The translations under genes were made by a program, and so were the position numbers. A stretch of DNA of 64,000 bases, taken from a virus. Below, piece after piece: positions 12,201-37,354 of this stretch (the first letter of the stretch is position 1; each line of letters opens with the position of its first letter). The stretch spans positions 5,316-69,315 of IMG/VR virus record IMGVR_UViG_3300046321_000141; one strand, given 5' to 3'. Below the pieces are notes generated by a model. That model ran no database searches, was not told the DNA's origin, and saw only the letters and a program-made list of their open reading frames with translations.

Positions 12201-12207
12201 ATCTAGT

Positions 12208-12230: not shown

Positions 12231-12236
12231 TTTGAT

Positions 12237-12260: not shown

Positions 12261-12273
12261 ATTTGGAGAAACA

Positions 12274-13487: not shown

Positions 13488-15625
13488 AAGATTTTGCAGC
13501 AATGGAGTACAACCCTACAGCGGAAAAGCTTGTAGAAGTGTTGTGCAAAAAAACACAAAATGACAATCCACTGTTCTTTCGTGTACTGGTTGGTTACTAC
13601 TTTAGCTTAGTAGCATCCATGATGCGCTGTAGTGTCATTACACATGATCGTGGTGATATACCTGTTAGCTTTTACGCAATAAATCTCAGCCCCTCTGGAA
13701 GTGGAAAAGGCTTCTCTACAAATATTGTAGAAGGCAGTGTTATTAACTTGTTTAGGCAGCGTTTTCAAGAAGAAACCTATCCATTGCTTGCAGAATTGAA
13801 TCTTCCAAAGATTGCCAATAAAAGAGCAGCTAGAAAAGGTGTAGACCCTGATGAAGAATTGGAAAGAGTAAAGAAAGAGTTTGACAGTGCGGGAACACTG
13901 TTCTTTACCTTCTCTGAAGCCACGGCACCAGCTATTAAGCAAATGCGGCATACTTTATTGATGGCAGGAGCAGGCTCACTTAACCTTGCCATTGATGAAG
14001 TGGGGAGTAATTTGAGCGGTAGTATTGATGCTTTGAATACGTACTTAGAGCTTTATGATGTAGGTGCAATCAAGCCAAAACTAACAAAAAACACTGCTGA
14101 CAGTAAGCGTAATGAAGAGATCGCCGGACGAACACCCGCTAACTTGATTGCATTTGGTACGCCTACAAAGCTACTAGATGGGTCTAAGACTGAAGAAGAG
14201 TTTTACTCTTTACTGGAGACTGGGTATGCACGGAGAAGCTTTTTTGGTTATATACGCACAGCTTCTCAAACCAAGTATCAAACACCCGAAGATGTTTACG
14301 CAGCATTAACGGATACCTCTAGTGATGTTTTTCTGGACTCTCTGGCTCAAAAACTAGAGCACCTCGCTGACATGGTTAATACCAATAAGCGACTTGTAAT
14401 GAGTAGGGACACTAGCCTCCTTCTTATCGAGTACAGAATGAAATGTGAAGCAGAGGCTGCAACATACTCCGATCACGAAGAGGTAAAGAAAGCTGAGATA
14501 TGCCACAGGTACTTTAAAGCTTTGAAGCTAGCAGGTGCGTATGCATTTATAGATGGTTCTGCCACAGTTACAACAGATCACCTATACAACGCTATAAAGC
14601 TGGCAGAAGAGTGTGGAGAGGCTTTTAATCAGCTACTCACACGAGATAGGGCATATGTAAAGTTAGCTAAGTACATCTCGTCTGTAAAGCGTGACGTTAC
14701 TCAAGCAGACTTGGTAGAAGACCTGCCTTTCTACAGAGGAGGTGCTGCACAGAAAAACGAAATGATGACCTTGGCTATAGCTTACGGCTACAAGAACAAC
14801 ATCATTATTAAAAAATCTGTATCTGACGGTATTGAGTTCTTTAAAGGTGAAACCCTTAAAGAAACTGATAGCACAAAACTCATTGTGTCCTATGGTACGG
14901 AGTTAGCAGAGAACTATCGTAATGAGTATGCACCGTGGGATAACTTGCATAAGCTCACCCAAGCTCGAGGACTGCACTGGACTAATCATCACCTAGCCAA
15001 TGGGTATAGGAATGAGGAGTCTTGCCTTTCTGGTTTTAATTTGATAGTGGTGGATGTGGACGGAGGTACGGATGTATCTACAGCCCAGTTACTGCTGAAA
15101 GGTTATAAGTACTTGCTATACACAACCAAACGACACACAGAAAGCGAGAATAGGTTTAGGCTCATTTTCCCAACTAACTATCAACTCAACCTTGACCCCA
15201 AGGACTACAAAGAGTTTATGAATAGTGTGTATGACTGGCTACCTTTCGAGGTAGATAAAGCCACTAACCAACGAAGTAGAAAATGGTTATCTCACCAAGG
15301 ACAGCACTTCTATAACGAAGGTGAAGTATTGGACGTACTGCCATTTATTCCTAAAACCAGCAAGAGTGAGGAACGTAAAGCACTGCTTAAAGACCAACAA
15401 GCACTGGACAACTTGGAACGTTGGCTACTTAACCAATGTGCTCAGGACGGAAGAAACAACACATTGTTGCGTTATGCAATGGTACTTGTTGATGCTGGTT
15501 TCACTTTTGAAGACATACGGAAAAAGGTACTTTCTCTTAATGAGAAACTTCCAGACAAGTTGGATGAAGTAGAAATTATGGGCACAGTGTTAGTGACCGT
15601 TGCTAAAACACTAGCTAAAAAGTAA
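13484..15625 (+). CDS. DNA primase (N4 gp43-like; P-loop N-terminal part, primase and PriCT C-terminal part)
   Basis: SPSGSGKG Walker A; VDVDGG, YTTKRH, RFRLI primase motifs; GRNNTL PriCT. ATG at 13484 overlaps the upstream stop (ATGA). Confidence 0.88.
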   Translation: MKDFAAMEYNPTAEKLVEVLCKKTQNDNPLFFRVLVGYYFSLVASMMRCSVITHDRGDIPVSFYAINLSPSGSGKGFSTNIVEGSVINLFRQRFQEETYPLLAELNLPKIANKRAARKGVDPDEELERVKKEFDSAGTLFFTFSEATAPAIKQMRHTLLMAGAGSLNLAIDEVGSNLSGSIDALNTYLELYDVGAIKPKLTKNTADSKRNEEIAGRTPANLIAFGTPTKLLDGSKTEEEFYSLLETGYARRSFFGYIRTASQTKYQTPEDVYAALTDTSSDVFLDSLAQKLEHLADMVNTNKRLVMSRDTSLLLIEYRMKCEAEAATYSDHEEVKKAEICHRYFKALKLAGAYAFIDGSATVTTDHLYNAIKLAEECGEAFNQLLTRDRAYVKLAKYISSVKRDVTQADLVEDLPFYRGGAAQKNEMMTLAIAYGYKNNIIIKKSVSDGIEFFKGETLKETDSTKLIVSYGTELAENYRNEYAPWDNLHKLTQARGLHWTNHHLANGYRNEESCLSGFNLIVVDVDGGTDVSTAQLLLKGYKYLLYTTKRHTESENRFRLIFPTNYQLNLDPKDYKEFMNSVYDWLPFEVDKATNQRSRKWLSHQGQHFYNEGEVLDVLPFIPKTSKSEERKALLKDQQALDNLERWLLNQCAQDGRNNTLLRYAMVLVDAGFTFEDIRKKVLSLNEKLPDKLDEVEIMGTVLVTVAKTLAKK

Positions 15626-15647
15626 CGCACTCCGTGCGTTTTTGTGA
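15624..15647 (+). promoter_or_regulatory. Class-2 hairpin element
   Basis: AACGCAC-TCC-GTGCGTT then TTT-GTGA, overlapping the primase stop. Confidence 0.55.
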
Positions 15648-15751
15648 AAAATAAAGGAGCAAGTAACAGGCTACTTTAAATACGCGCGTATTCAGTAGAG
15701 GGTGGGACATAGAGAAAGCCCTCACCACACTACCAAACCACAGGAATTAAG

Positions 15752-16474
15752 ATGAAACAAACAAACAAGAATATTGTTTTGATTATGGGAAAACCAAATA
15801 CAGGTAAGTCCACATCTTTACGTAATTTACGTAATCAAGACAAAATGGTTTACTTAAACACAGATTTAAAAGATTTACCATTCAAAAATAAATTCATGCG
15901 CTCTGTAGAAATAGGGGATGCTTTAGATGTGCTGGCATACATCAAAGAGATTGAAAGTAATGAAAAAGTAGAAGGGGCTGTGCTTGATACAGTCACTTTT
16001 CTTATGTCTTTATATGAGCGTCAGTATGTCAGTAATGCTGCCAATGGTCAAAAGGCTTGGGGAGAGTATGGAAACTTCTATAAAGAATTTATCCATACCA
16101 TTAAAGCAGGTACTAAGGATTACGCAATATTGGCACATGAAGACACAATATTGAATGAACAGTCTATGCAAATGGAAACGCGCATCCCGATAAAAGGTAG
16201 TGTCGGCAAAATCGGAGTCGAGGCAGACTTCACCACCATCTTGTCTACTAAGCAGTTGCCTATCCGGAAACTAGAAGGTTTTGAAAATGAGCTTCTACAT
16301 ATTACTGATGAGGAGCGTGAAGATGGCTTTAAATACGTTTTTGCTACCCGAGTCGTAAAAGAGTCAATTGGGGAGAAAATGCGATCCGCAATTGGATTGT
16401 GGAAACGTAATGAACTCTATATTGATAATGATTTAGACCAGGTATTCACACGCTTGCGGCAGTATTACTCGTAA
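15752..16474 (+). CDS. Sak4-like AAA ATPase (N4 gp44-like)
   Basis: GKPNTGKST Walker A; VLDT; ILAHE; between primase and SSB. Confidence 0.85.
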   Translation: MKQTNKNIVLIMGKPNTGKSTSLRNLRNQDKMVYLNTDLKDLPFKNKFMRSVEIGDALDVLAYIKEIESNEKVEGAVLDTVTFLMSLYERQYVSNAANGQKAWGEYGNFYKEFIHTIKAGTKDYAILAHEDTILNEQSMQMETRIPIKGSVGKIGVEADFTTILSTKQLPIRKLEGFENELLHITDEEREDGFKYVFATRVVKESIGEKMRSAIGLWKRNELYIDNDLDQVFTRLRQYYS

Positions 16475-16568
16475 CAATTTCTCAGTCTGCAACGCTTAGT
16501 TAATAAATACAGCAGACTTTTCCAGAAAAGTATTTATTAACAAAAACAACTTAAACCAAATTAAAAAT

Positions 16569-17297
16569 ATGTCACTTCTCGCAGCACTCTCAACCGACAG
16601 CAGTATTCAAGATGAAACAGACTCAGTAGGAGCTACTGTACTGGACTCTGGACTGTATAACGCCACTATTAAATCTGCTTACATTGGTAAATCAGATGGT
16701 GGAGCAATTAGCCTTGTTTGTGGCTTTACAACAGATACTGGTAAAGACTTTAAACAAACCTTTTGGATGACTTCAGGAACAGCTAAAGGATGTAAAAACT
16801 ACTACGAGAAAGATGGGGAAAAGAAATATTTGCCTGGATTCTTGATGGCAAATAGCTTGGCTTTGTTGACAGTAGGTAAAGAGATTTCTGCTCTGGACAC
16901 GGAAACCAAAGTAGTTAAAGCCTACAACAAAGACGCAAAAGCAGAGATGCCTACCAAGGTAGAGATGCTTATGGACTTGCTAAACCAAGATATTAAAGTA
17001 GGGCTGCTTAAACAGACCGTCGATAAAACAGTCAAAGCAGATGATGGTACGTATGTACCTACTGGTGAGACGCGTGATGAAAATGAGGTAGATAAGTTTT
17101 TCCGGGCTAAAGATGGAATGACTACAGCAGAGATTCGTGCTCAAGCTGATACAGCAACATTCATGAATACTTGGTCTACCAAATGGACGGGAAAGGTCAA
17201 GGATCGTTCTAAAGGTGCTGCTGCATCAGGCACTGCTGGAGCTCCAAAAGCTGCCTCTACTGCCGCTAAAAAGCCTACTACTAGCTTGTTTGGTTAA
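16569..17297 (+). CDS. ssb: Single-stranded DNA-binding protein (N4 gp45-like)
   Basis: LDSGLY...IK.AY..KS.GGA; NYYEKDGEK.YLPGF; ENEVDKFF; C-terminal KKPTTSLFG. Confidence 0.85.
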   Translation: MSLLAALSTDSSIQDETDSVGATVLDSGLYNATIKSAYIGKSDGGAISLVCGFTTDTGKDFKQTFWMTSGTAKGCKNYYEKDGEKKYLPGFLMANSLALLTVGKEISALDTETKVVKAYNKDAKAEMPTKVEMLMDLLNQDIKVGLLKQTVDKTVKADDGTYVPTGETRDENEVDKFFRAKDGMTTAEIRAQADTATFMNTWSTKWTGKVKDRSKGAAASGTAGAPKAASTAAKKPTTSLFG

Positions 17298-17307
17298 GGA
17301 CTAAATC

Positions 17308-17553
17308 ATGATTCAACAAGATGCATTTGAACTCACAAACTTGGTAGACATGGCTGCTTCAGCAGAAGCTTGGCGCATTGCCAAAAGCAAAACCTTTCTA
17401 CACATGGCAGAGATTCCCACAGGCACCATCATGGATGTAGATGGTGTGCAACACTGTCTGGAAGGCGATCTACTCACTGGATTTATTGGCGGAATGCGCT
17501 TTGCTGCTGACATGCTAGCGTCTGAGCAAGTGTTTGTAACCCTAGATGATTAA
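17308..17553 (+). CDS. Hypothetical protein
   Basis: 81 aa, SD AAGGA, coupled to neighbours. Confidence 0.6.
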   Translation: MIQQDAFELTNLVDMAASAEAWRIAKSKTFLHMAEIPTGTIMDVDGVQHCLEGDLLTGFIGGMRFAADMLASEQVFVTLDD

Positions 17554-18130
17554 GATAAGTATCTGCGGCAATGACCCTAGTTTCAGACACTGGGGAATAG
17601 CAGTTGGTGAGTACTGTCTTGTTACTAACAGAGTGGTGATTAATCATTTAGATGTAATTGAGCCTGTACTTACCAAGTCTAAGCAGGTTAGACAAAATAG
17701 CTTAGATGTAGAAGCCAGTAAACAAATATTTGAGAGTGTTTACAGATACACCAAAGACGCTCAAGTAGTGTTTGCTGAAGTACCTGTCGGCAGTCAGAAC
17801 TCCAGAGCAGCAACTGCTTTTGGAGTGTGCGTAGGAGTGTTAGGTTGTCTGAATGGTTTAGGTATATCAATTAACGAAGTTACACCTACACAAGTCAAGG
17901 TAGCAGCAGTCAATAATAAGACAGCTACCAAGCAGCAGATGATTACCTGGGCTTCTATGCTACACCCTGAAGCCAATTGGCCTACATATAACCACAAAGG
18001 TAAAACCTTAATTACCGAGTCTAAAGCAGAGCACATGGCTGATGCCATAGGGTCTATATATGCAGGTATAGCTTCCCCGCATTTTCAACAACTGCTTAAT
18101 ACACTAAAGAAAGCAAACTATGCAAATTAA
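17546..18130 (+). CDS. RuvC-like Holliday junction resolvase (N4 gp46-like)
   Basis: GNDPSFRHWG, FAEVP.GSQ, V.PTQVK, ATKQQMI, EHMADAI. Confidence 0.85.
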   Translation: MIKISICGNDPSFRHWGIAVGEYCLVTNRVVINHLDVIEPVLTKSKQVRQNSLDVEASKQIFESVYRYTKDAQVVFAEVPVGSQNSRAATAFGVCVGVLGCLNGLGISINEVTPTQVKVAAVNNKTATKQQMITWASMLHPEANWPTYNHKGKTLITESKAEHMADAIGSIYAGIASPHFQQLLNTLKKANYAN

Positions 18131-18664: not shown

Positions 18665-21600
18665 TTATTTGCCTGGTACCAGAGCGCTAACAGATGATCC
18701 AATTGCCTTTGCGGTGATTGTTTCATCTACAACATCCAAGAACTTAAATGGCCCATCCTGGAATGGTGACCAAGACCTTGCTGTAAAAGAACTTCCAGTA
18801 ACAATGTCTATACCTGATGTGTATGCATCAAATAACCACAACTGCATAGCACGTAAGGGATGCTCCCGCATTGCTTTAAACAACGGTGCCTGAATACGTA
18901 GAAAATACTTAGTAAAGTACAACAAACCAATACTATTAGCTGCTTCAATCATACGGTGCGACGGAACATCGTAGTTAACAAAGCTATCTGTTATCTCTTT
19001 TAGTATTTCATACTCACTTAACTTATTTTGTTTGGTCAAGTGCTGATAAAGAGCATACCTAGCAGTAAAGTCACTTACTTGTGTGCTGTAACGCAGAAAT
19101 TGATACAGGCCTGTATTTTCTGTCATGTAAAGCGTACTTGTGATGTTTCTTGCTAAATTGCCAAGTGATTTTGCTTTATCTGCTTTTTTGTTTAACTTTT
19201 CAAACAATTTACCTTTGTACGAATAATCTTGAGAGATTGTTTCTACATCTTCAACAATTGTAGGCATAAAGCCAGCATCAATAAGATTCTTTACAGGGTT
19301 CTTATTAATGCTTTCTTGCAGTAAGCCAATACGATTAATGAACTCAGGATGCTTATTAACTTGTGTACCAGTAGCTATGTACATCTGTAATTCGTTCAAC
19401 TCCTGTGACTGTTCCCTGTAAATATTCAGTGCAGACAGTGCTCTACTTTTCTCTTGTAGTGCTTCCTTTATACCCATACCGTTTAGATACAACAAAGACA
19501 AGTTGCTTAACTCGTTACCCACTAACACTGAGCCAGTCTTGATAACAATAAAGTCTTTAACTTCAGATACCACTTCTTCTGTTGCTCTTTGAAGTTGTTT
19601 CATCCACACAGATGCACGAACTCTCGCATCATATTTCTGTTCTACTGTTCCCCTTCTGGCATATAAAAACTCAACTACTTTGGTTACACCCTGTGTAAAT
19701 AGAATTTGATCTTGCTTGGATTGCAGTATGGAATCTCCCAAGGTAAGTTTCTTATATCCAAAAGCCATGTCCAACATGTCTTTACGTACATACATACCTT
19801 TGTCTCCCCAAACAGATTCAATCTCTTGCCGGGTTTCATAAGGAAGTTCGTTGTACCTACCACTGTATTCAGCATCTTTGCTCTTTGCGCCCACTAAGAA
19901 AAAGTCTCGCTCATTGCCTTTATATGTAGCGTCATAAAGTTCTTTTAGTGCTTTAACTATGGTTTTGTTGTGTTCTTTAGAGCTTAACTTTTCTCCTGTT
20001 GTTCCGCTTAACTTACCAAGCAAATATGAAAAGTCATTGTTACGCTGGAGCACGTTGTTTTTAAACTGCTCACTAGCTACATGACGGTAGTTGACTGTAT
20101 TGCCTTGCTCATCTACCAAAGGAACCATACTAGAAGAGCCTGTACTATCAAACTTAAAACCTTTGACTTTAATAGCTTGATATCCTGCTGCTCTGTTCGC
20201 ATCTGCTTGTTGATTCAAGCCTTGGTTGTACGGCCCAAATAAACCAGTCACATCACCATCATGCAGCATTGCTCCTTTGGCTTTGTTATCCAATACAGAG
20301 AATAATCCTGTGGCTCTACGTGTTTCTGGCAGGTTCTTATGCACAAGCATTGTTACTGGTTTTTGCTGTGCCGGGTCTTTAGGCAGAACACCATAACTTA
20401 CATAACCAGCTTTTAAGTACCTGCCCGTTTGCTGCGCTGTTGTTGCTGTCGCCGTGTCCTGTATGTAGATTACATGCACGTTAGGATTGTGCACTTCTGG
20501 CAAGTATCCATGCACCATTGCATGTGGGCTACCCTTGAATAGAGAGTCTTTGGCTTCTTGAACCAGTGCTTTATGCATTGCCATAGTAAAAGACATGCCA
20601 TTGTCTTTGCCACGAGCATTTTCCTCTTTAAGAATACTTTGTGCAGCAACTTTGCTTGCATTGCTCATATGACGTAACGCATACAAAGAAACCAGGTCAT
20701 AAACCAATGGTTCAAGATATGCTTGTTTAGCTGCCAGCTTTCCAGCCACAGGTGTAGCATTCATAGCGATGACTTGTGCAGCATTTAAGGCTGTACCTGT
20801 CGAGTCTTTGCTATTACCCGTCATCAAATAGTGTGCAGTAGCTTCTGCCCTATAAGCCAAGAAGTCAGTTAAGCCTTTAGATTCTGTTTGCATCTTGGTT
20901 TTGATAGAAGCAATTTCTTTATCCAGATGTTTTGCATCAGTTAAAAGTAACTCTGTTCTGGCAGCGTCGTAAGAACTGCTAGCTATACCTGTACGAAGTA
21001 ATGTAGATATACCTGCCTTCACTTCTTTAGTGAGTCGTTTTTCATTAGCAAAGTTTTTCTTTAGCACGTTAACTGTTTGTTCTATGTCCTGCTCTCGCGT
21101 TGCTTCGATTTGTTTAGTCAACTGCAACAAACGAACAAATGCACCCTTTACGTTAGAGGATGTAAGCACCTCATTAAACAAACCAGCAGCAACACCTAAG
21201 CGACCATGTATGTATTGATTACGCAGGCTCATAAAGCCCTGCATACGGGCCTGTACTGTTCCTGTAAGAACAGCTTCTCCAGCTTCTGCAAGCACGTTTA
21301 CAGCAGGTGAAAGAGTTTGCCCAATAAAAGGTACTTTCTTTAATCCTGTTCCTGTAGCTAACTTAGAGCGTACAACTTTCAAACCAACTTGCTTAACTTT
21401 ATTGGAGGCATTCTCCATAGCAGTATTAAGTGTGTTTATTTTTTGCACTTTCTTAAGTGCAACTTGTCTCTGTGCTTCTGCTGCTACTAAGTTATTAACT
21501 AACTTACTAATACTTGTGTCCATAGTTTGACGATTACGAACACCAGTAGAAAAAGATACAAAGGTATTAAGTACTTTACTAAACAAGTCCTTAAGTTTAT

Positions 21601-24600
21601 TAAACAAGTTGTTTTTAATCTTTACATTAGGCAACTTCGTAGTAACGTTGTTCAATGCAGCAATTACTTGCTCAGATGCCAAACCGAATGCAGCAAAGCG
21701 TACTAGCTTCTGTTTATCCAAAGAATTAAACAAATAGTTGTGCAGAGCAGTTGTTTCTGCTTTTTCTGTCACGGTTGCACTATTCCAATCACCGTTGTAC
21801 AAGTTTTCTACTTTTACTGAATCTCTGGCTTGTACAAATAACTTTTCCAGTGTTCTCCAGTATTTAAAGAACTCTGGGCGATTCATTGCAACATCTAAAG
21901 TGATTGCAACCTGATCTACAACAAATGCTTCTTGTGCTGATAAGTTAAGTCCTGCATTTTGTATACCTGTTGCAATAGGCACCTCATTATTATTCAAAGC
22001 ATCTGCGTAGGTAGCTACCTCATCAATAGCAGTGTCCTGCATACGAGCAGAACTGAGGCTTCCAAACGGGCCATGTAGCTTCTCAACTATGTTACTGAGC
22101 AGATTACTCAAGTGTGCTTGTGTGTCTGTCCTGAGTGGATTCTGAGCATCTGTAAGTGCGTTAAAAACATCTACAGTTGCGTGCGTGTACAAACCACTTG
22201 CTGTACGCATGGCTCTTGCTTCAGTAGCAACGTAAGCATTGTACTTAGCATCATTAATAAGGTTGGCACCTTCAACAAGCAAACCAAGCAAGGCATTGTT
22301 AAGTACACCTGTTTTACGCTTATCTACAGAACCATCTAGATTAAAACCAATAGCAAAAGAAAATGCTTTAACTACCGACTTAAGAAAGTCAATCAAAGGG
22401 TTGTTGTAGAAACTCTTAACTACTTTAGCATCTTTACTTATTTTTTTGGTTTTAAGAATGTCTTGAAATGTTTTACTGGTCAAACCATAAGCAACAAACT
22501 CATCAACATTTTCAAACTGAGCATAAGTATTGTCGATAGCAACAAGTTTAGTAATATCTTCTTCTGTAAGTTGTTCTTGTACAGACGCCATCAAATTCAC
22601 GAGGTTATCGTAAGTTTGTTGCTGGTCTGCTGATACTTGCTTACCATTGCGGATAGCTTCCAAGTACCCCACAGTAACTGCATGGATAGCTTCATGCAGT
22701 ATTACTTCTGATGCTTTATTTTTACTGTTGAATACATAAATAGTATTACCAACTGTAAGAGCGTTTGCATTACTAAAGTCTTGTTTGCTGATAGCTTCTA
22801 AGTGTTCAGGACGCACATCTTGAATACTATCTACAGCATACACAGTTGTGTCTGTGCCTTTAAGCACACCTGCAAGCAACTTCTTGTACTCTGTAGGAAT
22901 GTTTGTTTGGATGCGTTCTAGCAAGATATTCAAAGATATACCTGTCGCTGTCTTAGCTTCAGCCAAAAAGCTTTCAGGTGTATAGGTAGCAGGATACTCA
23001 GAGTCCTTGCTTTCTTCTACAGTAGTTATGACAGTGGCTTGTACTTCTTTTGGCTCAGCACCGATGCTAGCTTGTTTAGTCAACAGTTGACTAAGTGTTT
23101 TATTGTCTTCTCTTTGTTGTTTCTTAACTCGATCAATAACTGAATCAATGACTTTTAGGTCAGCGGTAGTAACTTCGTATGCACCACCTTCAAAAGCATA
23201 TTGGTTTATGTACTTGACACTTTTGAGAAATTCAAGTTTATGGTATGTACCCAAATAAGCTGTATTAGTAACTTCAATCAGTTTAGCTACATTCAATGAT
23301 GGTTTGTACTCTGCATCTTGTGCAGCAAGTTCTAACTGAGCTTCAAAGTTTTTAATAGCCATTGAAGTAACAGCATTAACAGGAGAGTACTCAACCATGA
23401 GTTCAAGCGTTGCTTTGTTAAACTCAATAGCCATAGCCTTAGCATGTGCAAAGCCTGTACCGCCAGAGTCATGCATGTTGATAGAAGCAATACCCTGTTT
23501 AAAGAGTTCGTTCATGCGCTGGAACGATATAAAGGAATCTCCTGAGTGAGTACCAACCGAAGTACTCAAAACGCCTGGAGAGCCTTCTACACGCTTCTGT
23601 GAACTAGCAATACGGTGCTTATTGAAACCAGTAAGAAAAGGGTATGAACCAGTAACCATTGTCTTGTAGCTGGGATCATCGGTAGTAGCTTTGTCGCTAG
23701 ATAGCAGTAACAGCCCTGCATCTGGTTCTTTACCCTTTTGGGAGTAGTAAGAATCCATTACAGGAGTAAAACCTTTAGTAAGTAACTCAGACTCAATGTC
23801 TGCTAACTCTTCTTTAGTTAACCCCACATTTACTTCGCCTTTTACAAACTTTATACCTTTTTCTTTTAATTTCTTATCGGTAAAAAACTTTTTAGCTTTT
23901 ATGTAGCCTTCAGCAGTTTGATTAGTTATGTTTGTAACATCATTGCGCTTTTCTATAAAGCTAGAGAAGTATTCTTTTAAAGCAGCTTCTATCAAGTTAG
24001 ATAAACCACCCCCATCTTTACTATAAAAAGTATCTGTAATGGTTTTTCGTTCAGCAGTAGAGATGTACCAATTATTCTGAAGAGTTTCTAATGTTTGTTG
24101 CGAAACATCTAAACCAAGCTGCGTAAGGGCTTCTTTTATTTGGGTTTCTGCTTCTGGCTCACCATTCTTGTAACTTTCTGCAATCTTGTCGTAAATGTTT
24201 TCTTCCAAAGCACTAATGAAGTTAGTGCTAGCTTTGTACAAGCCACTACCAAACGATATTGGGTTGAATAAATCTTTTACTGACTGACGGTTTAGAAACT
24301 TGTCATCCCCATAGAAATACTTAAGCCCTTCGTATGCTTGGACACTTTTACCAACATGCTCACCTTTACTGATAGCGTCAGCTAAGTGATTTTTAATAAA
24401 GTTAGCACCGTGTGTATAAAAGTCCGTATTACCTACTTGTTCTAACCAAACATTAATGTCTTTGTCAGTATCAGTAGTAAAAAAACCACCACGAGCAAAC
24501 AACTCTTTAAATGATTGCTGTCCTGATGCGAGTCCCCATAGCAACTGAGTAAGGATAGGGCCATTACCAACTCCGTCTACTTCAGCCATTATGTCGGTTG

Positions 24601-26452
24601 AGTATATAGAGTCACCTGCTTCTACTGCCTGTAGGAAACCTACATATGCAAGCAAAGCATCAAGAGTCTTAGCCCGCTCACCTTTTTTAAGCCCAGCAGC
24701 CGTAACTAGTTCAAGAAGTGCATTACTCTCTTCTGTGGTGTAGTCAGCCTCCTCAGAATAGGCAATTGCTTGTATTGCTTTTTGTACAAAATCTTGCTGT
24801 ACAAAAGCTTCAAAACTACTCATTGAAGTACTGTTACTCTTTTTATCCGTGGCTATGCCGAAACCTTCTGCTACTCGCAGAAGAAATGTTTCTTCAGATT
24901 TCACATCTCCAATTACTACATCACTATTCCATGATGGGGTAGTCATGTTGTAACGGTGTATTTTTACACTGGTTGGGTCAACACTGCTAGTGACACCCAC
25001 ACGAAGCATCTTCCACACGTCTGTAGATAGGTAGAAACCATTATAAGAATCACTGTCCCCAGCAACTTCATCAAAAGAGGCCAAATCAGCTTGAATACCT
25101 TTATTAGCTGCTTCAGCACCTTTACGCTGACTCACTTGAAGTTCTGCAATCTCTTCTGGCGACTTAACACCCATCACAACTTCACGTAACGACATCCCAC
25201 CATATTCAGTGTTACGCAACTTCTCAAATACCTCAGCATTTTTTACTTTAAATGTGAAAGGAGTTGATTGAAATTGTTTAAGTACTTCTTGCAGCATTTT
25301 TGGTACTGCTTGTCCTGTTTTTGTCTTTGTAGGTACTTTGCTTACTGGTTTATACGAAACATAGTTTTGTTTCTCTTCGTTACCAAAAAACCTTGCAAGT
25401 ACATCTCTACTACCTTTGCTGGAATCAATAAGACTTTTTACACTTTTCTCTACAGCATCAGTTTGGCTTAGAGAGTAAAAAAACATTTGTCGGTTATTTG
25501 CTTTGTCTTGCTCTTCTTTTGTCAAGGTTTCATAGCGACCGCTATCTTTAAGAAACTGTGCTTCATCAACACTATGAACCACTACATATCCAGGTTTATT
25601 TATGTTTCTAGGTTTATCTATGTTTTGCGCTCTAAGCAACTGATACACCTGAGCACCTAAAGATGTTTTCAGATTGGCTATGACGTTAGGTGATGCGCCT
25701 GCTTGATTCTTTAAACCAAGCAAGTTATATGCAGTACTGCCCCAACTAGCATAAGCATTGTTGGTTGTTATGCTGAATCCTTGATATGTATCGAATACAT
25801 CTTTAGACACTGGGGCATCACGATTAAAGCCAAGCAAGCTATTAACCTGCTTAGTGTCGTTAACTGTAGTACCTAGGTCTTTGACAGCCTCATAAGCAGC
25901 ATATATGAGGGCTATCTGTATTGATTCAGGAGTAGCACCATTGACTACTAATTGACGAAACAAATCACTGTCAAAAAGTTTTTGGCTATCAAGATTGAGG
26001 GTAAGACCTCTATCAGCTTCATTTAGTGCAGCTGGAAAGAATGCTTGCTTAAAGTGACTCTTTTTAAGCTTTGCAGACATTTCTGTAGCAAATGTAGAAA
26101 AAGAATTAATAGCACCTTGCTCTGCATCAACAAGTGTTTCAATACCTAAACGCTCTTTAACTGCACTAGCCAACGTACCTTTTGTAGCCATTGAAACCAA
26201 TTGATTAAACTGACTAACCGCAGAACCGAATACAGGTTGTACATGGTCACCAAGTTTGCCTTTTACTTCTGTACCTTTAGCAAACAAACCAGAAGGTAAT
26301 GCTGATACGAGCATTCCTTGTTTTAGCTCTGATATGGCGGAGTTAACTGCCGACTGTGCTCGTTTATCTGCATTACCTTTACTGGTTATATGCTCTGCTT
26401 TATCAGTCAAAGCATGGATTTCAGCATCGGAAAAGTTATCAAAACAGCTCAT
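18665..26452 (-). CDS. Virion RNA polymerase, polymerase + C-terminal domains (N4 gp50-like)
   Basis: Motif A AEVDGVGNGP (D626), motif B RQSVKDLFNPISFGSG (K726, F734), motif C NMHDSG (D995); HEAIH zincin motif; conserved C-terminus (DFTARYALY, FVNYD, GLLYFTKYFLRIQ); one Cys in 2595 aa. Confidence 0.92.
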   Translation of the reverse strand: MSCFDNFSDAEIHALTDKAEHITSKGNADKRAQSAVNSAISELKQGMLVSALPSGLFAKGTEVKGKLGDHVQPVFGSAVSQFNQLVSMATKGTLASAVKERLGIETLVDAEQGAINSFSTFATEMSAKLKKSHFKQAFFPAALNEADRGLTLNLDSQKLFDSDLFRQLVVNGATPESIQIALIYAAYEAVKDLGTTVNDTKQVNSLLGFNRDAPVSKDVFDTYQGFSITTNNAYASWGSTAYNLLGLKNQAGASPNVIANLKTSLGAQVYQLLRAQNIDKPRNINKPGYVVVHSVDEAQFLKDSGRYETLTKEEQDKANNRQMFFYSLSQTDAVEKSVKSLIDSSKGSRDVLARFFGNEEKQNYVSYKPVSKVPTKTKTGQAVPKMLQEVLKQFQSTPFTFKVKNAEVFEKLRNTEYGGMSLREVVMGVKSPEEIAELQVSQRKGAEAANKGIQADLASFDEVAGDSDSYNGFYLSTDVWKMLRVGVTSSVDPTSVKIHRYNMTTPSWNSDVVIGDVKSEETFLLRVAEGFGIATDKKSNSTSMSSFEAFVQQDFVQKAIQAIAYSEEADYTTEESNALLELVTAAGLKKGERAKTLDALLAYVGFLQAVEAGDSIYSTDIMAEVDGVGNGPILTQLLWGLASGQQSFKELFARGGFFTTDTDKDINVWLEQVGNTDFYTHGANFIKNHLADAISKGEHVGKSVQAYEGLKYFYGDDKFLNRQSVKDLFNPISFGSGLYKASTNFISALEENIYDKIAESYKNGEPEAETQIKEALTQLGLDVSQQTLETLQNNWYISTAERKTITDTFYSKDGGGLSNLIEAALKEYFSSFIEKRNDVTNITNQTAEGYIKAKKFFTDKKLKEKGIKFVKGEVNVGLTKEELADIESELLTKGFTPVMDSYYSQKGKEPDAGLLLLSSDKATTDDPSYKTMVTGSYPFLTGFNKHRIASSQKRVEGSPGVLSTSVGTHSGDSFISFQRMNELFKQGIASINMHDSGGTGFAHAKAMAIEFNKATLELMVEYSPVNAVTSMAIKNFEAQLELAAQDAEYKPSLNVAKLIEVTNTAYLGTYHKLEFLKSVKYINQYAFEGGAYEVTTADLKVIDSVIDRVKKQQREDNKTLSQLLTKQASIGAEPKEVQATVITTVEESKDSEYPATYTPESFLAEAKTATGISLNILLERIQTNIPTEYKKLLAGVLKGTDTTVYAVDSIQDVRPEHLEAISKQDFSNANALTVGNTIYVFNSKNKASEVILHEAIHAVTVGYLEAIRNGKQVSADQQQTYDNLVNLMASVQEQLTEEDITKLVAIDNTYAQFENVDEFVAYGLTSKTFQDILKTKKISKDAKVVKSFYNNPLIDFLKSVVKAFSFAIGFNLDGSVDKRKTGVLNNALLGLLVEGANLINDAKYNAYVATEARAMRTASGLYTHATVDVFNALTDAQNPLRTDTQAHLSNLLSNIVEKLHGPFGSLSSARMQDTAIDEVATYADALNNNEVPIATGIQNAGLNLSAQEAFVVDQVAITLDVAMNRPEFFKYWRTLEKLFVQARDSVKVENLYNGDWNSATVTEKAETTALHNYLFNSLDKQKLVRFAAFGLASEQVIAALNNVTTKLPNVKIKNNLFNKLKDLFSKVLNTFVSFSTGVRNRQTMDTSISKLVNNLVAAEAQRQVALKKVQKINTLNTAMENASNKVKQVGLKVVRSKLATGTGLKKVPFIGQTLSPAVNVLAEAGEAVLTGTVQARMQGFMSLRNQYIHGRLGVAAGLFNEVLTSSNVKGAFVRLLQLTKQIEATREQDIEQTVNVLKKNFANEKRLTKEVKAGISTLLRTGIASSSYDAARTELLLTDAKHLDKEIASIKTKMQTESKGLTDFLAYRAEATAHYLMTGNSKDSTGTALNAAQVIAMNATPVAGKLAAKQAYLEPLVYDLVSLYALRHMSNASKVAAQSILKEENARGKDNGMSFTMAMHKALVQEAKDSLFKGSPHAMVHGYLPEVHNPNVHVIYIQDTATATTAQQTGRYLKAGYVSYGVLPKDPAQQKPVTMLVHKNLPETRRATGLFSVLDNKAKGAMLHDGDVTGLFGPYNQGLNQQADANRAAGYQAIKVKGFKFDSTGSSSMVPLVDEQGNTVNYRHVASEQFKNNVLQRNNDFSYLLGKLSGTTGEKLSSKEHNKTIVKALKELYDATYKGNERDFFLVGAKSKDAEYSGRYNELPYETRQEIESVWGDKGMYVRKDMLDMAFGYKKLTLGDSILQSKQDQILFTQGVTKVVEFLYARRGTVEQKYDARVRASVWMKQLQRATEEVVSEVKDFIVIKTGSVLVGNELSNLSLLYLNGMGIKEALQEKSRALSALNIYREQSQELNELQMYIATGTQVNKHPEFINRIGLLQESINKNPVKNLIDAGFMPTIVEDVETISQDYSYKGKLFEKLNKKADKAKSLGNLARNITSTLYMTENTGLYQFLRYSTQVSDFTARYALYQHLTKQNKLSEYEILKEITDSFVNYDVPSHRMIEAANSIGLLYFTKYFLRIQAPLFKAMREHPLRAMQLWLFDAYTSGIDIVTGSSFTARSWSPFQDGPFKFLDVVDETITAKAIGSSVSALVPGK

Positions 26453-29430
26453 TATGTTGCCTTAAGACATTCAAGTAATTCTTGGTATCTCTTCAAATCT
26501 TGCTTGATTTTTGAGAATGATTTATTGACTAAGTGTTGTGCAGGTAATGCACTTACTTTTGTACTGGTAGCTTGTTCAGAGCCTGTGTCATTAACAACTG
26601 CGCTGCTTGCCTCACTGTCTCTTGGGAGGCTGTCAGTTTTTTGCTTTGTAACAGCCTCTTGACTTTTTGTATCGACGCTTGATTCAGCTTTTCCAGTTGT
26701 ATTTGTGTCAAGCCGTGTTTCAGTACTTTTAAGAATTGTGTTGTCATTTAGAAGTTCCGTAGCTAGTGTAACTAGCTCAGATTCTATTTGTTTACCAGCA
26801 GCACTGTTAACAATATTATTTACAGCAGCAGTACTTACCTGTGTCTCAACTTGTCCAGATTCTGTTGGTTCTGTTCTGACACCTTCTTTTGTTGTTCCAA
26901 CAACTTCTGGTCTTTTTTCTTCTGTTTGCTTGGTTTCAATGGTTTGTTTGCCATTATTTATCTCAATAGGTAAGTTTAATCTTGTAGCCATACCATTTAG
27001 TAATGGTGTAGCAACTTCTAGAGCTTTATTAATATTCTCTACTACTTTCTTAGCTCCGACCAATCCTTTTGTAATATCGAATGCAGTTTTTAAACCAGCT
27101 TGAGGTTTATCAGTAATTACGTAACTATTATCCACAGTTTTATAAATATACTGACCAACTTTTATTTTACTCAGCGCATCTGCTTTACTTTGTTGATTTT
27201 CATAAAAAGACTTAAATTTATCAAAAGAAGTTTGTTTAGCTCCTTGTGTGTCTGATTTATTAAAGTCTGCATAGTACTGTACAAAACCTTTGAAGTTTTT
27301 ACCTGGTGTAGTGCCTTGTTGCTTTGAGCCATACAAAACGGTGTTCTGTACATCTGAAGATGTCTTAATACCTAAAGCTGCTTTGTATTCAGCAGATACA
27401 TTACGAAGCGTAGTAAGTTGCTCAGGGGTAGCTAAACCAGAGGCTATAACATTATCTATGGCAGCTACTACTTCAGGTGTAGGAGCAGCTTTAGAGCGCA
27501 TAGCACGCACAACAAACCCAGCTACTGCCTGAGTATCTACAGATACATCAGAACCTGTCTTAGGGGCTGTAATAGCGTCTGCTAAAGCTACTAACTTATC
27601 TGGCGCAACCTCAGCAGTAGCCGCCGCTTCTAAACCAACAAATAAATTATTTACTTCTGTAAGCTGAGGATTCAGGATTGCAAGTTTTTTGTTTGCAATC
27701 TTTTCTTCTTTAGGGTCTACAGGCAAGTTGTAGAAAACATTTGCTGCTCCTATAAGCTTCTCTATCCGTGCTTTGTCTTTCGGGTCAGTAGCTTCAGAGA
27801 GTTGTTGTTGGTAGCCCTGCACAACCTCAGCAAGTAATTCCTGCTTACCCTCTGTAGTCATTTTTTTAAGGTTGTTAACTTCCTCTTCCAAAGGAATTAA
27901 TACCTCTTCCTCAGCGCGCCTAATGTTCTCTTGTTTATCAGTGTCAGACTTACCATCTAAACTACTGTTTTTAACAAACACATCAATAGCGTCAACCCAC
28001 TGTTTCTTAGTTGCTTCTGCTGGTTTAAGGTACTCAGCAGGATCATTATTAGTAACAGCAGCTTCCTTATCTACTTTTAAAGGAGCAAACTTATCTTTAA
28101 TAGCTCCAGCTACATCAGTGGCTGTATTAATAACAGCATCAGCAATAGCTACATCAGGTGCAGGAATACGCTTAACTACTTCATTAGCCAAACCAACAGC
28201 AACAGATGTTGGTTTAAGACCTGCACCAACTAAAGCACCTACGTTAAAGCTCTCTAAATCACTCGCAAAGTTGTTATCTTTATAGGTAGCAGCATTTTCT
28301 AATCTGCCTTGTACAGCCTCAGTGATGCCCTCTCCAGCAGCACTTACAGCAGCTTTACCTGTTGCCTTAGAAGCAGCTTTCGCTAGAGCCAGTGCAATAT
28401 TAGTTGTATCAGCCGTAGCAATAGCAGCAGCCTTCACACCCGGTGCAATACCAAGTGCAAGATCGCCTACTGTCTCACTGGCTGTGGCTACTCCTGCAAG
28501 TCTGAGAGCATCGGAGCGTTCTTTGGATGTAGGTAGTCCTGAATTAGTTGTTGTTGCTTCTACTGACTGGTTATAAATATCAGACCCATAAGCAGCATTA
28601 GTAAGTGCAGCAGCTACTTTACCTGAACCCAGGGAAAGTATGTTACCTGTCTGAGAAGCCAACAATTCAAGAGCACCAACAGGATTATCTACAGCAGCAG
28701 GCACAAACGCTGCAATAGCTCCAGGAGCATTACTAAGGTACTCTCCAAATGCTTTAGCATATTGCCCTTTATCCAGTAGCTCTGAACCTCTATCAAAACC
28801 AGCAATAGCGCCAGCATTACGCTTACGCAAATCAGTTATTAACTCATTGGTTTTAGTAGGATCAACCGTGTTGCTATTATCAAAGAACTCTCTTAAGTCC
28901 TTTGTATCACGTATCTTTGATTTCCAGTTTTCTAGCCGTTGTTGATTAGTCTGTGCCCCATTCAATCTTTCATAGTCTGCTATGGTCATTTGCTTACGCT
29001 TACTGGTTTCCCCAGCAGGTAAGCTAAGTAACTCTAAATCAGCAGGAGTGGCGGTTCCATTAACTCTCCTAGCATCAGCAGCAATAACAGAGTCAGGAAT
29101 GTTTGCTGATATGGCCAAACTCTGCAAAGCATTAAAAGCTGCCCCCATATTGCCAGAAACATTGCCAATAGAGTTACCCCCTATTACAGCTAGGTTAGTA
29201 CCTGTACGTAGTGCCCCACTATCTAAGCTAAGCCTACCAACAAAACTATCATTAGCTTGTTGGCGTAATTGCATGGCTTTGTTGAACACACCATCTTGGT
29301 GTTTCTGTGCTGCTTCTTGAAGTTTTTGCAGCTTAAGCTGGTCGGCAGAAACTGAAGGAGAGTCAACAACACCTAAGTCATTGGACGCTACTCTAGAATT
29401 TAAATAGTTAGTTAAATCAAACTCTGCCAT
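26452..29430 (-). CDS. Separate N-terminal (injection) domain of virion RNAP / large ejection protein
   Basis: 992 aa, close to the ~1000 aa N4 vRNAP NTD; Ala/Gly-rich hydrophobic segment with GEGITEAVQ motif; TAATG overlap with the polymerase ORF; one Cys. Confidence 0.75.
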   Translation of the reverse strand: MAEFDLTNYLNSRVASNDLGVVDSPSVSADQLKLQKLQEAAQKHQDGVFNKAMQLRQQANDSFVGRLSLDSGALRTGTNLAVIGGNSIGNVSGNMGAAFNALQSLAISANIPDSVIAADARRVNGTATPADLELLSLPAGETSKRKQMTIADYERLNGAQTNQQRLENWKSKIRDTKDLREFFDNSNTVDPTKTNELITDLRKRNAGAIAGFDRGSELLDKGQYAKAFGEYLSNAPGAIAAFVPAAVDNPVGALELLASQTGNILSLGSGKVAAALTNAAYGSDIYNQSVEATTTNSGLPTSKERSDALRLAGVATASETVGDLALGIAPGVKAAAIATADTTNIALALAKAASKATGKAAVSAAGEGITEAVQGRLENAATYKDNNFASDLESFNVGALVGAGLKPTSVAVGLANEVVKRIPAPDVAIADAVINTATDVAGAIKDKFAPLKVDKEAAVTNNDPAEYLKPAEATKKQWVDAIDVFVKNSSLDGKSDTDKQENIRRAEEEVLIPLEEEVNNLKKMTTEGKQELLAEVVQGYQQQLSEATDPKDKARIEKLIGAANVFYNLPVDPKEEKIANKKLAILNPQLTEVNNLFVGLEAAATAEVAPDKLVALADAITAPKTGSDVSVDTQAVAGFVVRAMRSKAAPTPEVVAAIDNVIASGLATPEQLTTLRNVSAEYKAALGIKTSSDVQNTVLYGSKQQGTTPGKNFKGFVQYYADFNKSDTQGAKQTSFDKFKSFYENQQSKADALSKIKVGQYIYKTVDNSYVITDKPQAGLKTAFDITKGLVGAKKVVENINKALEVATPLLNGMATRLNLPIEINNGKQTIETKQTEEKRPEVVGTTKEGVRTEPTESGQVETQVSTAAVNNIVNSAAGKQIESELVTLATELLNDNTILKSTETRLDTNTTGKAESSVDTKSQEAVTKQKTDSLPRDSEASSAVVNDTGSEQATSTKVSALPAQHLVNKSFSKIKQDLKRYQELLECLKAT

Positions 29431-29445: not shown

Positions 29446-30768
29446 TTACTTCTTAGGCTCAATAGCAAATTTAGTTGCTTCACGAGAGTTATATAGAGTG
29501 TCTCTATATTTGTCACTGTTTTTACGAATAGTGGATATGGCTGCAATATCTGATAAATGCTTTGGAGAATTTACGTAAGCATCTAGCTTTTTCTTAATAT
29601 TGTTTCCTAAGCCCCAATCACCCAACAGTTGCCCAACAGTACTACTGTTTTCTAAACTAGCTTCTTTAATAATACTGACCACTACATTTGCGGGTATCTT
29701 TTTATCACCGTACTCACCAATAACACTTTGAGCATATGCTTTTGCATCTTGTAAGTTTTTATCCTTAGTACTGTCAGGAATACGGGCATTTACCGCAGCA
29801 GTTACAGCATCAGTACCTTCTGTATCATTACCATAGAAACCACCAGTCAAACCGGCCCTACCAAGAGCTTCTGCCTCATACTGTGCGGAAGCTTTCTTAG
29901 CATTATCAGCAGCAGTTATCTGTTTAGTAAGTTTGTCTGCTACAGCAGCATCATTACCAACAGTATCTGTAGGACTACCAAGGTTAAGTGCAGTTTTGAG
30001 AGCTTTAGAACCAGCATCCAGTGCGGCAGTAGGCAGACCCCGTTCAACCAGTTGCTTCATAGCAGTGTCATACATTGCTGTATCTGACAAACCAGCCTGT
30101 CTCTTAGTTAAAAGTCCTTGTACATCCTTCTCTACACCTTGAACAATACGCTTTTCTTCTTCTGCTTTTCTATAAGCATCTTTTTGATTTACTTGCTGTT
30201 CCAGATTAAAAGTTCTGTTATTTCGTACATCCTCAATACCTTGTAAAGATTTAAACAAAGGTACAGCTAAAGCATCGGGAAGTGTGCCTTGACGGTGATA
30301 TTGCAAAGCAGCTTGTTTAGCAGACTCTTGAGCAGCAGGATCGCTACTAAGGGCCATAGCTTCTAAACGATTAACGATGCCCTTACCACCTTCCAGAGTA
30401 GAGGCTTCTGTCCTTAATTTGGCAGCTTCATCGTTAGCACGTGAAGTAGCCAACACCCCTTGGAACAATTTAGTTGCTTCATCAGCACCAAGATCCATAT
30501 CTTGAGCCATCTGCAGAAACTGTCCACTATCAACACCTGCTTGTAGACCTTCAGTACCAGTTTGCAGAAGACCGTATTTAAGAGCATCAAGTTGTTTGGC
30601 TTTTATTGCTGCATCAGCATTAGCAACCCTTTGCTGCTCATCCCCAATCATTTTCTGAAAGCCACCAATACCAGTATTTAGTGATCGTTGGCCTGCCATA
30701 AGCAAGTCAAGTGATGCAGTAGCCGGGTCACCGCCTCTGCTTAGATTATTCCAGGTTATTTGTGCCAT
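29446..30768 (-). CDS. Ejection protein (N4 gp51-like)
   Basis: MAQITWNNL start typical of this N4-like gene; Cys-free; synteny. Confidence 0.7.
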   Translation of the reverse strand: MAQITWNNLSRGGDPATASLDLLMAGQRSLNTGIGGFQKMIGDEQQRVANADAAIKAKQLDALKYGLLQTGTEGLQAGVDSGQFLQMAQDMDLGADEATKLFQGVLATSRANDEAAKLRTEASTLEGGKGIVNRLEAMALSSDPAAQESAKQAALQYHRQGTLPDALAVPLFKSLQGIEDVRNNRTFNLEQQVNQKDAYRKAEEEKRIVQGVEKDVQGLLTKRQAGLSDTAMYDTAMKQLVERGLPTAALDAGSKALKTALNLGSPTDTVGNDAAVADKLTKQITAADNAKKASAQYEAEALGRAGLTGGFYGNDTEGTDAVTAAVNARIPDSTKDKNLQDAKAYAQSVIGEYGDKKIPANVVVSIIKEASLENSSTVGQLLGDWGLGNNIKKKLDAYVNSPKHLSDIAAISTIRKNSDKYRDTLYNSREATKFAIEPKK

Positions 30769-30769: not shown

Positions 30770-31288
30770 TTATTTCACCCCATATTTGGCAAGGTGGTCT
30801 GCTACCATGCGCTGACTGTCAGCACTATTATTACTAAAGCCGCGAGCAGATGCGCTACCTGTTGCACGAGTATGTAGACGTTCATTAACCAGTCCTTTTT
30901 GTACAGCAAAATCTTGGTTATACCTACGCTGCGATTCATCAAAACCTTTTTTAGCTAGTCCGTACTGTTGCATACCTAGCCACGTATTAAGCAAATTTTG
31001 TCCTATGCCCAAACCAGTAGGAAGAATGCCCGGGTCTTTTTGTGTACCAATCCAATTCATACCTTTAAAGTCACTGAGTGCAGAATTGAAGTTGTCACCC
31101 AGACTAAATCCACCCATTGAACCAACAGAAGGATCATTACCGTACCCACCAAAACCAGAATACTGGGGAGAAGTTTGTGATGGTACGCCATACGCAGGTA
31201 CATCAGGAGCTACTGGCAAGTAACCATTTACAGCAGGATCATTGCCAGTACCTCCAAAACCTGACAATGTTTTATAGTATTCACGCAT
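30770..31288 (-). CDS. Small ejection protein (N4 gp52-like)
   Basis: Gly-rich, WLGMQQYGLAKK.FDE motif, Cys-free; synteny. Confidence 0.7.
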   Translation of the reverse strand: MREYYKTLSGFGGTGNDPAVNGYLPVAPDVPAYGVPSQTSPQYSGFGGYGNDPSVGSMGGFSLGDNFNSALSDFKGMNWIGTQKDPGILPTGLGIGQNLLNTWLGMQQYGLAKKGFDESQRRYNQDFAVQKGLVNERLHTRATGSASARGFSNNSADSQRMVADHLAKYGVK

Positions 31289-36286: not shown

Positions 36287-37354
36287 TCACAAATATGAAG
36301 GTTTTGAAAGTTTGCTGAATTCTTCATCAGACAAAGCCAATGGATTAAATTCCTTGGTTACCTGACCAGAAACAGCAGATTTACTGGGTGCCGCAGCACG
36401 CTTTTTATCCTTTAGCCTGTCATCCTGTGCTTGCATGGGTTTAGGCGCAATAACTTTACTAACTGCGGGTGATCGTTGTCCCTTGGCCAAGTGATCGAAT
36501 CCACCACGAGCTTGTAAAGCATCTCCTACTTTCCTATAAGCCTCAATATCCGACAAACCTTGCAGACGGCCAAATAGCTTCTCGTTCTCCACTTCCTTAT
36601 GAATAAGATCATAAATTCCAGTCTCCATGTGACTGTTTATGACTTTCAAAAGTTGCGGTGTATTAGCTACTACCTGTTTACTAGCCTCGTCCCATTCACT
36701 AGACACTGCGTTAATAGTACGTCCGTAGGTTGGAGAGTCTTTAATCTCGTCCAGTACCTCATCAAGTGCTACTTCACGATCATCTATTGCATAGGATTTT
36801 GGCTTGTATTCGTCTGCTTTCGTGGTGTCCATCTCTAATGGATCAATACCACTATCTTTCACAAGCTTTGCAATTGCCTCTGGATTTCGTCCATTAAGGT
36901 CAATCAGGTAGCTGATTTTAGATTCTTCCATCAAACCAGCTTTCTCCAACATCTTCAACATCTTGAAGTGTGGTTTCAAGCCAGCCATCTTTTTACTGTA
37001 ATTAGCCCCCATTTGCATGAGCGCAATAGCGTCATCTACGCTACGTACATTAATGTCTTTACCATTTGCTTTAAATGGTGCTGTAAGCCGGTCATACTCA
37101 GCTTTGTAATCTACTTCAGCAGCGGACTTCTCTTCTTCTGCTTTGTCCTCGCTGTCTCCAGTAGCTTCAACTACTTCACTGGTTTCTTCTACTTCATCAG
37201 TAGTATCCGCAGATTCCTCTGCATCAACTTGCGTAGCTTCCTCTGGTGCAACCTCTTGTGCTGGTTCCCCAATAACCTCAGCGACCTCTACAGGAGGCTC
37301 ACCTAGTTGGTCATCTGGCAAATCCAAGTAAGACGTTTGCTGTGCTTCAGCCAT
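36287..37354 (-). CDS. N4 gp57-like protein (probable capsid scaffold)
   Basis: Acidic N-terminus, APFKANGK, LMQMGANY.KKM, C-terminal NPLALSDEEF. Confidence 0.85.
   Translation of the reverse strand: MAEAQQTSYLDLPDDQLGEPPVEVAEVIGEPAQEVAPEEATQVDAEESADTTDEVEETSEVVEATGDSEDKAEEEKSAAEVDYKAEYDRLTAPFKANGKDINVRSVDDAIALMQMGANYSKKMAGLKPHFKMLKMLEKAGLMEESKISYLIDLNGRNPEAIAKLVKDSGIDPLEMDTTKADEYKPKSYAIDDREVALDEVLDEIKDSPTYGRTINAVSSEWDEASKQVVANTPQLLKVINSHMETGIYDLIHKEVENEKLFGRLQGLSDIEAYRKVGDALQARGGFDHLAKGQRSPAVSKVIAPKPMQAQDDRLKDKKRAAAPSKSAVSGQVTKEFNPLALSDEEFSKLSKPSYL

Follow-up and report, generated by a model that had tools for sequence, protein, structure and literature searches.

In phage N4, the RNA polymerase of the virion (vRNAP; gp50) contains a flexible linker of ∼100 residues (907-1007) between its N-terminal domain (NTD) and its RNA polymerase (RNAP) domain, and in the published model this linker keeps the polymerase anchored to the membrane (PMC13434306). 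In the passages of that work on ejection, the view is that the vRNAP leaves in an unfolded or beads-on-a-string form and that its NTD is the first part to engage gp51, and the exit of a 3500-residue polymerase through a channel of ∼35 angstroms is presented as an open question in the N4 field (PMC13434306). Such proteins nearly lack cysteine, which makes up 0.00075% of the residues of 191 Schitoviridae vRNAPs (PMC11445570), and where two reports discuss this absence they read it only as a way of avoiding oxidation in the periplasm (PMC11445570, PMC3821669). In the Alteromonas phages vB_AmaP_AD45-P1 to P4, the vRNAP is encoded in two genes; resequencing confirmed the stop between them, gels showed two polypeptides, and the authors, who state two cysteines in ORF127, took cysteines as the sign of a protein that is not injected (PMC3821669). 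In cyanopodophage A4 (Anabaena phage A-4L), the virion structure obtained by cryo-electron microscopy contains a Cys1715-Cys5 disulfide between the ejection proteins gp27 and gp26 (PMC12002296). Here we analyzed a stretch of 64,000 nucleotides, referred to as the window herein (bases 5316-69315 of the 69,315-bp IMG/VR virus record IMGVR_UViG_3300046321_000141, which is rated 94% complete), in which the vRNAP is encoded as two adjacent chains of 992 and 2595 residues. Each chain has a single cysteine, placed at the end that faces the other chain. By analogy with A4, these two residues, C988 and C3, probably form an inter-chain disulfide clasp that ties the chains end to end.

The vRNAP of the window in two chains

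We found that residues 75-2575 of the 2595-residue chain (P0002) match positions 928-3393 of the 3406 positions of phrog_2206, annotated 'virion RNA polymerase' (E = 0). The same chain matched solved N4 vRNAP structures (9pnr and others) with E values of ∼1e-32 and was aligned by hhalign to N4 gp50 residues 1165-3450 with a probability of 100. The 992-residue chain (P0001) gave no PHROG match and no Pfam match. By phmmer, it aligned with the N-terminal ∼400-990 residues of 40 one-piece vRNAPs, which are 3003-4464 residues long and free of cysteine in all 40 cases; by tblastn, it matched 22 phage records, again in the N-terminal part of one-piece vRNAPs; and its homologs P0077, P0078, and P0131 cover positions 146-926 of the 3406 in phrog_2206. 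While the vRNAPs of Schitoviridae are single polypeptides of ∼3500 residues, two open reading frames (ORFs) of 992 and 2595 residues take that place here, and their RNAP and C-terminal domains, as well as their NTD, are homologous to those of the family. By sequence comparison, the two chains are thus an N4-type vRNAP that has been cut at approximately profile position 927, in the linker between the NTD and the RNAP domain. The offsets to N4 gp50 were 970 by hhalign and 945 by phmmer on the C-terminal domain, so that the cut corresponds to N4 residue ∼945-975 and falls within the linker at 907-1007. P0001 has moderately hydrophobic 19-residue segments at 238-258, 311-339, and 397-415, and these fall in the region that matches the membrane-spanning helices predicted for the N4 NTD at 224-278 (PMC13434306). 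Homology and gene order suggest that both chains would be carried in the virion and enter the host by ejection.

Two sole cysteines at the junction

The original prediction for this locus had noted that the sole cysteines of the two chains flank the split, one five residues from an end and the other at position 3, with 23 nt between their codons. Our translation agrees to the base (Table 1), the distance being counted from first base to first base. It had further stated that the 440- and 172-residue proteins encoded just upstream contain no cysteine and that N4 vRNAP is cysteine-free, and we counted 0 and 0 in the former two and 0 in the 3500 residues of N4 gp50. The 992- and 2595-residue chains having one cysteine each, the four proteins of the window together contain 2 in 4199 residues. 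In the window, the remaining 61 long ORFs contain 176 in 15,256 residues (1.15%), a rate at which ∼48 would be expected in 4199. If two cysteines were placed at random among the 4199 positions, the probability that one would land among the final 6 residues of the 992-residue chain and the other among the initial 5 of the 2595-residue chain is p ∼3e-6.

The stop and start codons that separate the chains are not an assembly error because contigs from three other freshwater runs, each from a different study, extend across the junction and show no indels (X2, X3, and X5). Contigs X2 and X3 are identical, and X5 carries 8 substitutions in 501 bp, with zero between 26417 and 26553. For this check, contig X1 was excluded as a possible source of the window, and X4 covers 26200-26316 only.

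The ORFs overlap in TAATG, a sequence arrangement that implies translational coupling of the two chains. This overlap, with the second ORF in the -1 frame, is also what one would see if frameshifting or readthrough fused the ORFs and the cysteine codons were incidental to an RNA signal. We consider such a fusion highly improbable since the downstream frame is open for just 3 codons before its ATG, no slippery heptamer (X XXY YYZ) could be found by eye in 26450-26470, and AAGG precedes the ATG by 7 nt. Moreover, the cysteines are kept at the protein level across 22-46% identity with differing neighbor residues, and AD45-P1 and A-4L have short spacers rather than an overlap.

We also considered whether the two cysteines serve to re-join the chains covalently, giving a single polypeptide, by an intein-like or ligation-like reaction. 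An N-terminal cysteine is the nucleophile of such reactions and this genome does contain an intein, in its large terminase. However, with only four residues after C988 and two before C3, intein halves would not fit, and Pfam found no intein domain in either chain in the same scan that found the terminase endonuclease domains. AD45 phages show two polypeptides on gels, and the bond in A4 is a disulfide, not a peptide bond. Re-joining therefore seems very unlikely to us.

Table 1. Coordinates of the split vRNAP, its junction, and the adjacent upstream genes in the window
Feature	Position	Strand	Remarks
N-fragment of split vRNAP (992 aa, P0001), N-terminal membrane/ejection domain and flexible tail	26452..29430	-	tblastn/phmmer
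C-fragment of split vRNAP (2595 aa, P0002), RNAP domain and C-terminal domain	18665..26452	-	phrog_2206, structure matches, hhalign
992-aa ORF	29430..26452	-	ends ...LLECLKAT, then stop
2595-aa ORF	26452..18665	-	starts MSCF
TAATG stop/start overlap	26450..26454	-	TAA 26454..26452, ATG 26452..26450, base 26452 common to both
AAGG Shine-Dalgarno-like motif	26460..26463	-	7 nt before downstream ATG, within last codons of upstream gene; by-eye match
Cys988 codon TGT	26467..26469	-	sole Cys of 992-aa chain; fifth from end, four residues after
Cys3 codon TGT	26444..26446	-	sole Cys of 2595-aa chain, two residues before
Low-confidence, probably flexible linker segment, residues 824-963	26542..26961	-	AlphaFold2 pLDDT <50 over 824-973; matches N4 907-1007 linker in place
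Predicted C-terminal helix, residues 965-991	26458..26538	-	AlphaFold2 pLDDT ∼55 (low confidence); Cys988 in last turn
440-aa Cys-free protein, position of N4 gp51 / DEV gp72	29446..30768	-	gene order only
N4 gp52-like 172-aa protein, Cys-free	30770..31288	-	phrog_2646, family also matched by N4 16.5-kDa virion protein

Terminal cysteines in split relatives

A filter-free phmmer search with the 992-residue query against 1.84 billion representatives yielded 60 matches besides the query itself. Ten of these, the 40 one-piece proteins aside, were 964-1145 residues long, and 8 of the 10 had exactly one cysteine, located 1-6 residues from the C-terminus. Their endings were ...FLECLG, ...FINCL, ...AACLSK, ...FVCAFK, ...FLKCMKG, ...FMNCL, ...MDCVSSKKG, and ...SQACK. 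One of the two fragments without cysteine, P0093, is labeled 'partial' in its source and belongs to the same metagenome-assembled genome as the C-fragment P0005. A further 10 matches were shorter; P0109 is N-truncated and ends ...FFVCAF, and the remaining short pieces are on 1-3-kb contigs or have frameshift tails. We treated P0111, P0115, P0116, and P0128-P0130 as cut fragments (1-3-kb contigs, P0115 being labeled partial), and P0017 was rejected as a split form since it is a cut one-piece vRNAP. The N-fragments are 22-29% identical to P0001, and 10 columns of their alignment are invariant. The Cys988 column is kept in 9 of the 10 aligned N-fragments, and the cysteine of the tenth (P0131) is one column off.

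For the C-fragment, residues 1-700 of the 2595-residue protein were used as the query, and 71 proteins were returned. The four best matches (34-39% identity, 2632-2829 residues) each have one cysteine at residue 4 or 5, with the starts MATCSE, MSSKCF, MATCYE, and MSSNCF. Cluster member P0134 likewise has a single cysteine at residue 4-5, making 5 of 5 close C-fragments with sizes of 2632-2831 residues, and 65 of the 67 other matches were free of cysteine. When seven C-fragments were aligned, M1 and C3 were the sole invariant columns in the first 117 residues. Two of the fragments may be partners: for the C-fragment P0006 as for the N-fragment P0080, the source is ENA and the longest contig measures 18,138 bp, which suggests that they are on one contig.

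The check proposed with the original prediction, namely whether terminal cysteine pairs co-occur with the split in homologs, was thus borne out on both sides (8 of 10 N-fragments and 5 of 5 C-fragments). The one-piece forms provide the counterpart. Among the retrieved proteins of at least 3000 residues, 217 of 221 were without cysteine, at a total of 5 cysteines in 778,934 residues.

Beside these close homologs, AD45-P1, a metagenomic locus that we call L001, and the window itself are further split cases. We translated the AD45-P1 record (KF005317) and obtained an upstream piece of 2495 residues from a GTG start, with one cysteine at residue 2493 (...ASKHCKQ, then stop), and a downstream piece of 1409 residues with one cysteine at residue 4 (MTICTN...). 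There is hence one cysteine per piece by translation versus the two in ORF127 given in the paper. The masses of the AD45 pieces are ∼270 and ∼175 kDa. Residues 563-1325 of the downstream piece aligned to N4 residues 2742-3426, which puts this cut near the boundary between the RNAP and C-terminal domains, a site other than that of the NTD-RNAP cut in the window. In the KF005317 record itself (L065 5624-17348), the only annotation of the split vRNAP is a misc_feature that reads 'potential frameshift', and a coding sequence is absent. L001 is a divergent relative that is cut near the same site as the window; it starts MGNCFD, and Cys4 is the sole cysteine in the 1533 residues visible. In L001 (318-6123), the C-fragment of the vRNAP comes directly after a repeat-rich minor-tail-like protein (phrog_13352) with no NTD gene upstream, a gene order unlike that of N4.

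Scans with C-fragment alignments gave 13 and 48 loci, and all were one-piece or cut by a contig end except L001, a clean split, and L028. A profile search with alignment A3 gave no new split member, its word filter being swamped by vRNAPs of E. coli phages. As clean splits, we rejected L028 (2972-4804 / 4714-10692) and L062 (7345-8736 / 8730-17732), in which frameshifts break conserved sequence; they have out-of-frame tails and a proper start is absent. Both loci are from IMG/VR and have an NTD broken by the frameshift, and out-of-frame tails with cysteines can mimic terminal cysteines, as in P0083.

In a FastTree tree of 93 of the 102 candidate rows (9 without a phmmer match were excluded), a single clade unites the six close C-fragments, with L001 placed apart, which forces 2 changes. 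An approximately unbiased test on a 26-row IQ-TREE tree, with rows picked from those 93, did not reject a single clade that includes L001 (p 0.45). Our estimate from these trees and the cut positions is one origin for the main clade and, by its position, a second for AD45; the tree does not decide for L001. Since the close C-fragments come from one split event, it could be argued that the cysteines are neutral leftovers that hitch-hiked near a recent break. We find this barely credible given the p of ∼3e-6 for the window alone, the retention of the pair at 22-29% identity on the N side with 10 invariant columns only, and the occurrence of the same pair at another split site in AD45-P1.

A different question is whether the thiols act in some other way, by bridging a metal ion, by forming homodimer disulfides (N-N or C-C), or by linking to another virion protein. 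L001, which retains its N-terminal cysteine beside a cysteine-free upstream neighbor, would suit such a role, and other virion proteins of the window do carry cysteines (4 in the portal, 3 in the major head protein, and 3 in a 741-residue protein). We nevertheless regard it as unlikely because both cysteines accompany the split and one-piece forms lack them, and the bond of the same signature in A4 is a hetero bond that runs tail to head. As for the metal variant, a metal site that consists of just two thiols is a weak one.

Predicted structure of the ends

We modeled the 992-residue chain with AlphaFold2 from 10 sequences. Residues 455-823 were moderately confident and helical, and the chain was predicted to continue in a low-confidence, probably flexible segment and to close with a C-terminal helix that contains Cys988 (Table 1, where pLDDT is the predicted local distance difference test score). 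In the alignment of 10 N-fragments, a conserved terminal motif is seen that ends in F-x-x-C-L.

How a disulfide clasp could work, and what weighs against it

The tail-to-head disulfide put forward in the original prediction emerges as the best-supported reading of the junction, given that the cysteine pair is kept in split homologs and that A4 provides a precedent; for this phage, we still infer it. During assembly, the C-terminal helix of the 992-residue chain would dock on the N-terminal region of the 2595-residue chain, and the coupled TAATG junction would let the chains be produced in equal amounts. C988 and C3 would then form the disulfide in the virion, with oxidation taking place either within the capsid or once released from the cell. 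As each of these cysteines has at most 6 residues between it and its chain end, the linked product would be nearly linear, with stubs of ≤6 residues. It could be packaged and threaded through the tail with the NTD first and the polymerase pulled behind, which fits the published view of an unfolded or beads-on-a-string exit. Speculatively, thiol reductants of the cytoplasm may then open the clasp, and the polymerase would be released from the NTD, which is bound to the membrane.

Several observations weigh against the clasp. Assembly occurs in the reducing cytoplasm. The bond in this phage is drawn by analogy, and sequence similarity between gp26/gp27 of A4 and the chains of the window is undetectable. 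As the close C-fragments form one clade, their agreement reflects a single origin followed by conservation and not convergence on several occasions. The upstream neighbor of L001, a minor-tail-like protein on a 6.1-kb contig, is free of cysteine, so that its N-partner would have to be elsewhere or absent. P0081 (964 residues, 3.9-kb contig) has 0 cysteines and is either a cut fragment or a true exception. No cysteine was found in P0075 (2221 residues, beginning mid-RNAP, with two members on 19-24-kb contigs) or in P0067 (2928 residues, with an unrelated 175-residue N-terminus); both of these vRNAP variants lack an NTD, and the clasp rule may not hold for them. Lastly, the model of the 992-residue chain is of low confidence (mean pLDDT 57.7), and that of residues 1-500 of P0002 was too poor to use (mean pLDDT 41.7).

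One cysteine at each broken end suggests that the continuity of the chain is itself selected, and supports threading as a single string. If the clasp is real, it would reverse the published reading of AD45, in which a cysteine means 'not injected'. A more far-reaching version holds that the pair is a redox switch: the disulfide would replace the peptide bond of the linker, the chains would be threaded as one, and reduction in the cytoplasm would free the polymerase, and terminal cysteine pairs would be a general mark, readable from sequence, of ejected chains that are joined head to tail and of their order. We hold this version to be doubtful.

Genome context

The window covers most of the ∼69-kb genome of a podophage from freshwater, and its gene content is N4-like. 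It encodes an SU10-type portal, a major head protein, and a large terminase, and its 741-residue protein belongs to phrog_2220, a family that N4 gp53 matches too. The sequencing runs that hold window sequence are labeled as freshwater metagenomes, and in the same run look-up none were listed as RNA sequencing. On the minus strand, the gene order is 172-residue protein, 440-residue protein, 992-residue chain, and then 2595-residue chain. The original prediction had called the first two ejection proteins; the label holds for the 172-residue protein by family (phrog_2646, N4 gp52), and for the 440-residue protein, to which PHROG and Pfam scans assigned no family, it follows from position alone.

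Close relatives of the locus were scarce. Comparison of the window with phages by blastn found no close DNA relatives, locus scans with P0001, P0005, and P0077 and with the queries labeled A1 and A4 found no close relatives of the locus, and a word-indexed protein search with P0001 returned P0001 alone.

Several side observations were made on proteins of the window and their homologs. The large terminase gene (40627-43050, minus strand; 807 residues, GTG start) encodes the intein, with the Pfam domains LAGLIDADG_3 and Hom_end at residues 313-389; the insert likely starts at ...GVRGPL/SLDSKVYT and ends at ...ATHN/T, the slash marking the boundary. Among other proteins of the virion module, a 355-residue protein (phrog_2120, 36287-37354, minus strand) and a 669-residue tail-fiber-like protein (9433-11442, minus strand) are also free of cysteine, against the window background of 1.15%. 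Some one-piece vRNAP homologs have extra precomputed Pfam domains: P0014 (3967 residues) is listed with PF13538, PF05970, PF13604, PF13245, and PF13401, and three proteins of this set, which also includes P0009, P0022, and P0142, are listed with PF18760. For P0144 (4502 residues), no Pfam domain is listed and the source name is YbiA-like (DUF1768) ADP-ribosyltransferase. This suggests that the extra domains are putative cargo enzymes fused to the ejected polymerase.

Comparison with described systems

Split vRNAPs, in AD45, and one tail-to-head disulfide between ejection proteins, in A4, are already published. Our full-text search, which left most subscription journals outside, found no literature that links split vRNAPs with a terminal-cysteine disulfide or that states such a rule. 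In the part of the crassvirus atlas that treats disulfides, these are reported only in tail and portal-vertex proteins.

The vRNAPs of N4 and of other Schitoviridae, for instance gp71 of Pseudomonas phage DEV, share homologous NTD, RNAP, and C-terminal domains with the chains of the window. N4 and the window are also alike in the neighboring gp52-like and gp53-like families, in the portal and major head protein, and in a near-total avoidance of cysteine. N4 and DEV, however, have one chain of ∼3400-3500 residues with no cysteine, whereas the vRNAP of the window is cut in the linker between NTD and RNAP and carries one terminal cysteine per piece. Unlike the N4 linker, a disulfide at that place in the phage of the window could in principle be cut.

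Like the window, AD45-P1 has two adjacent vRNAP genes with sole cysteines at their facing ends.

The passages on A4 call gp26 and gp27 ejection proteins and mention RNA polymerase 0 times, and the core is presented there as a static 'mortise-and-tenon' from which those passages draw no general rule (PMC12002296). In the A-4L record, the genes of gp27 (1717 residues) and gp26 (1114 residues) are adjacent and co-oriented; their sole cysteines are at 1715 and 5, and gp29 has 0. The upstream sole cysteine of A4 thus lies on a C-terminal helix, 2 residues from the end, and its downstream counterpart is at residue 5; the window presents the same signature with C988 of 992 and C3. If the clasp proposed here is correct, the single disulfide of A4 would be extended to a rule that can be read from sequence.

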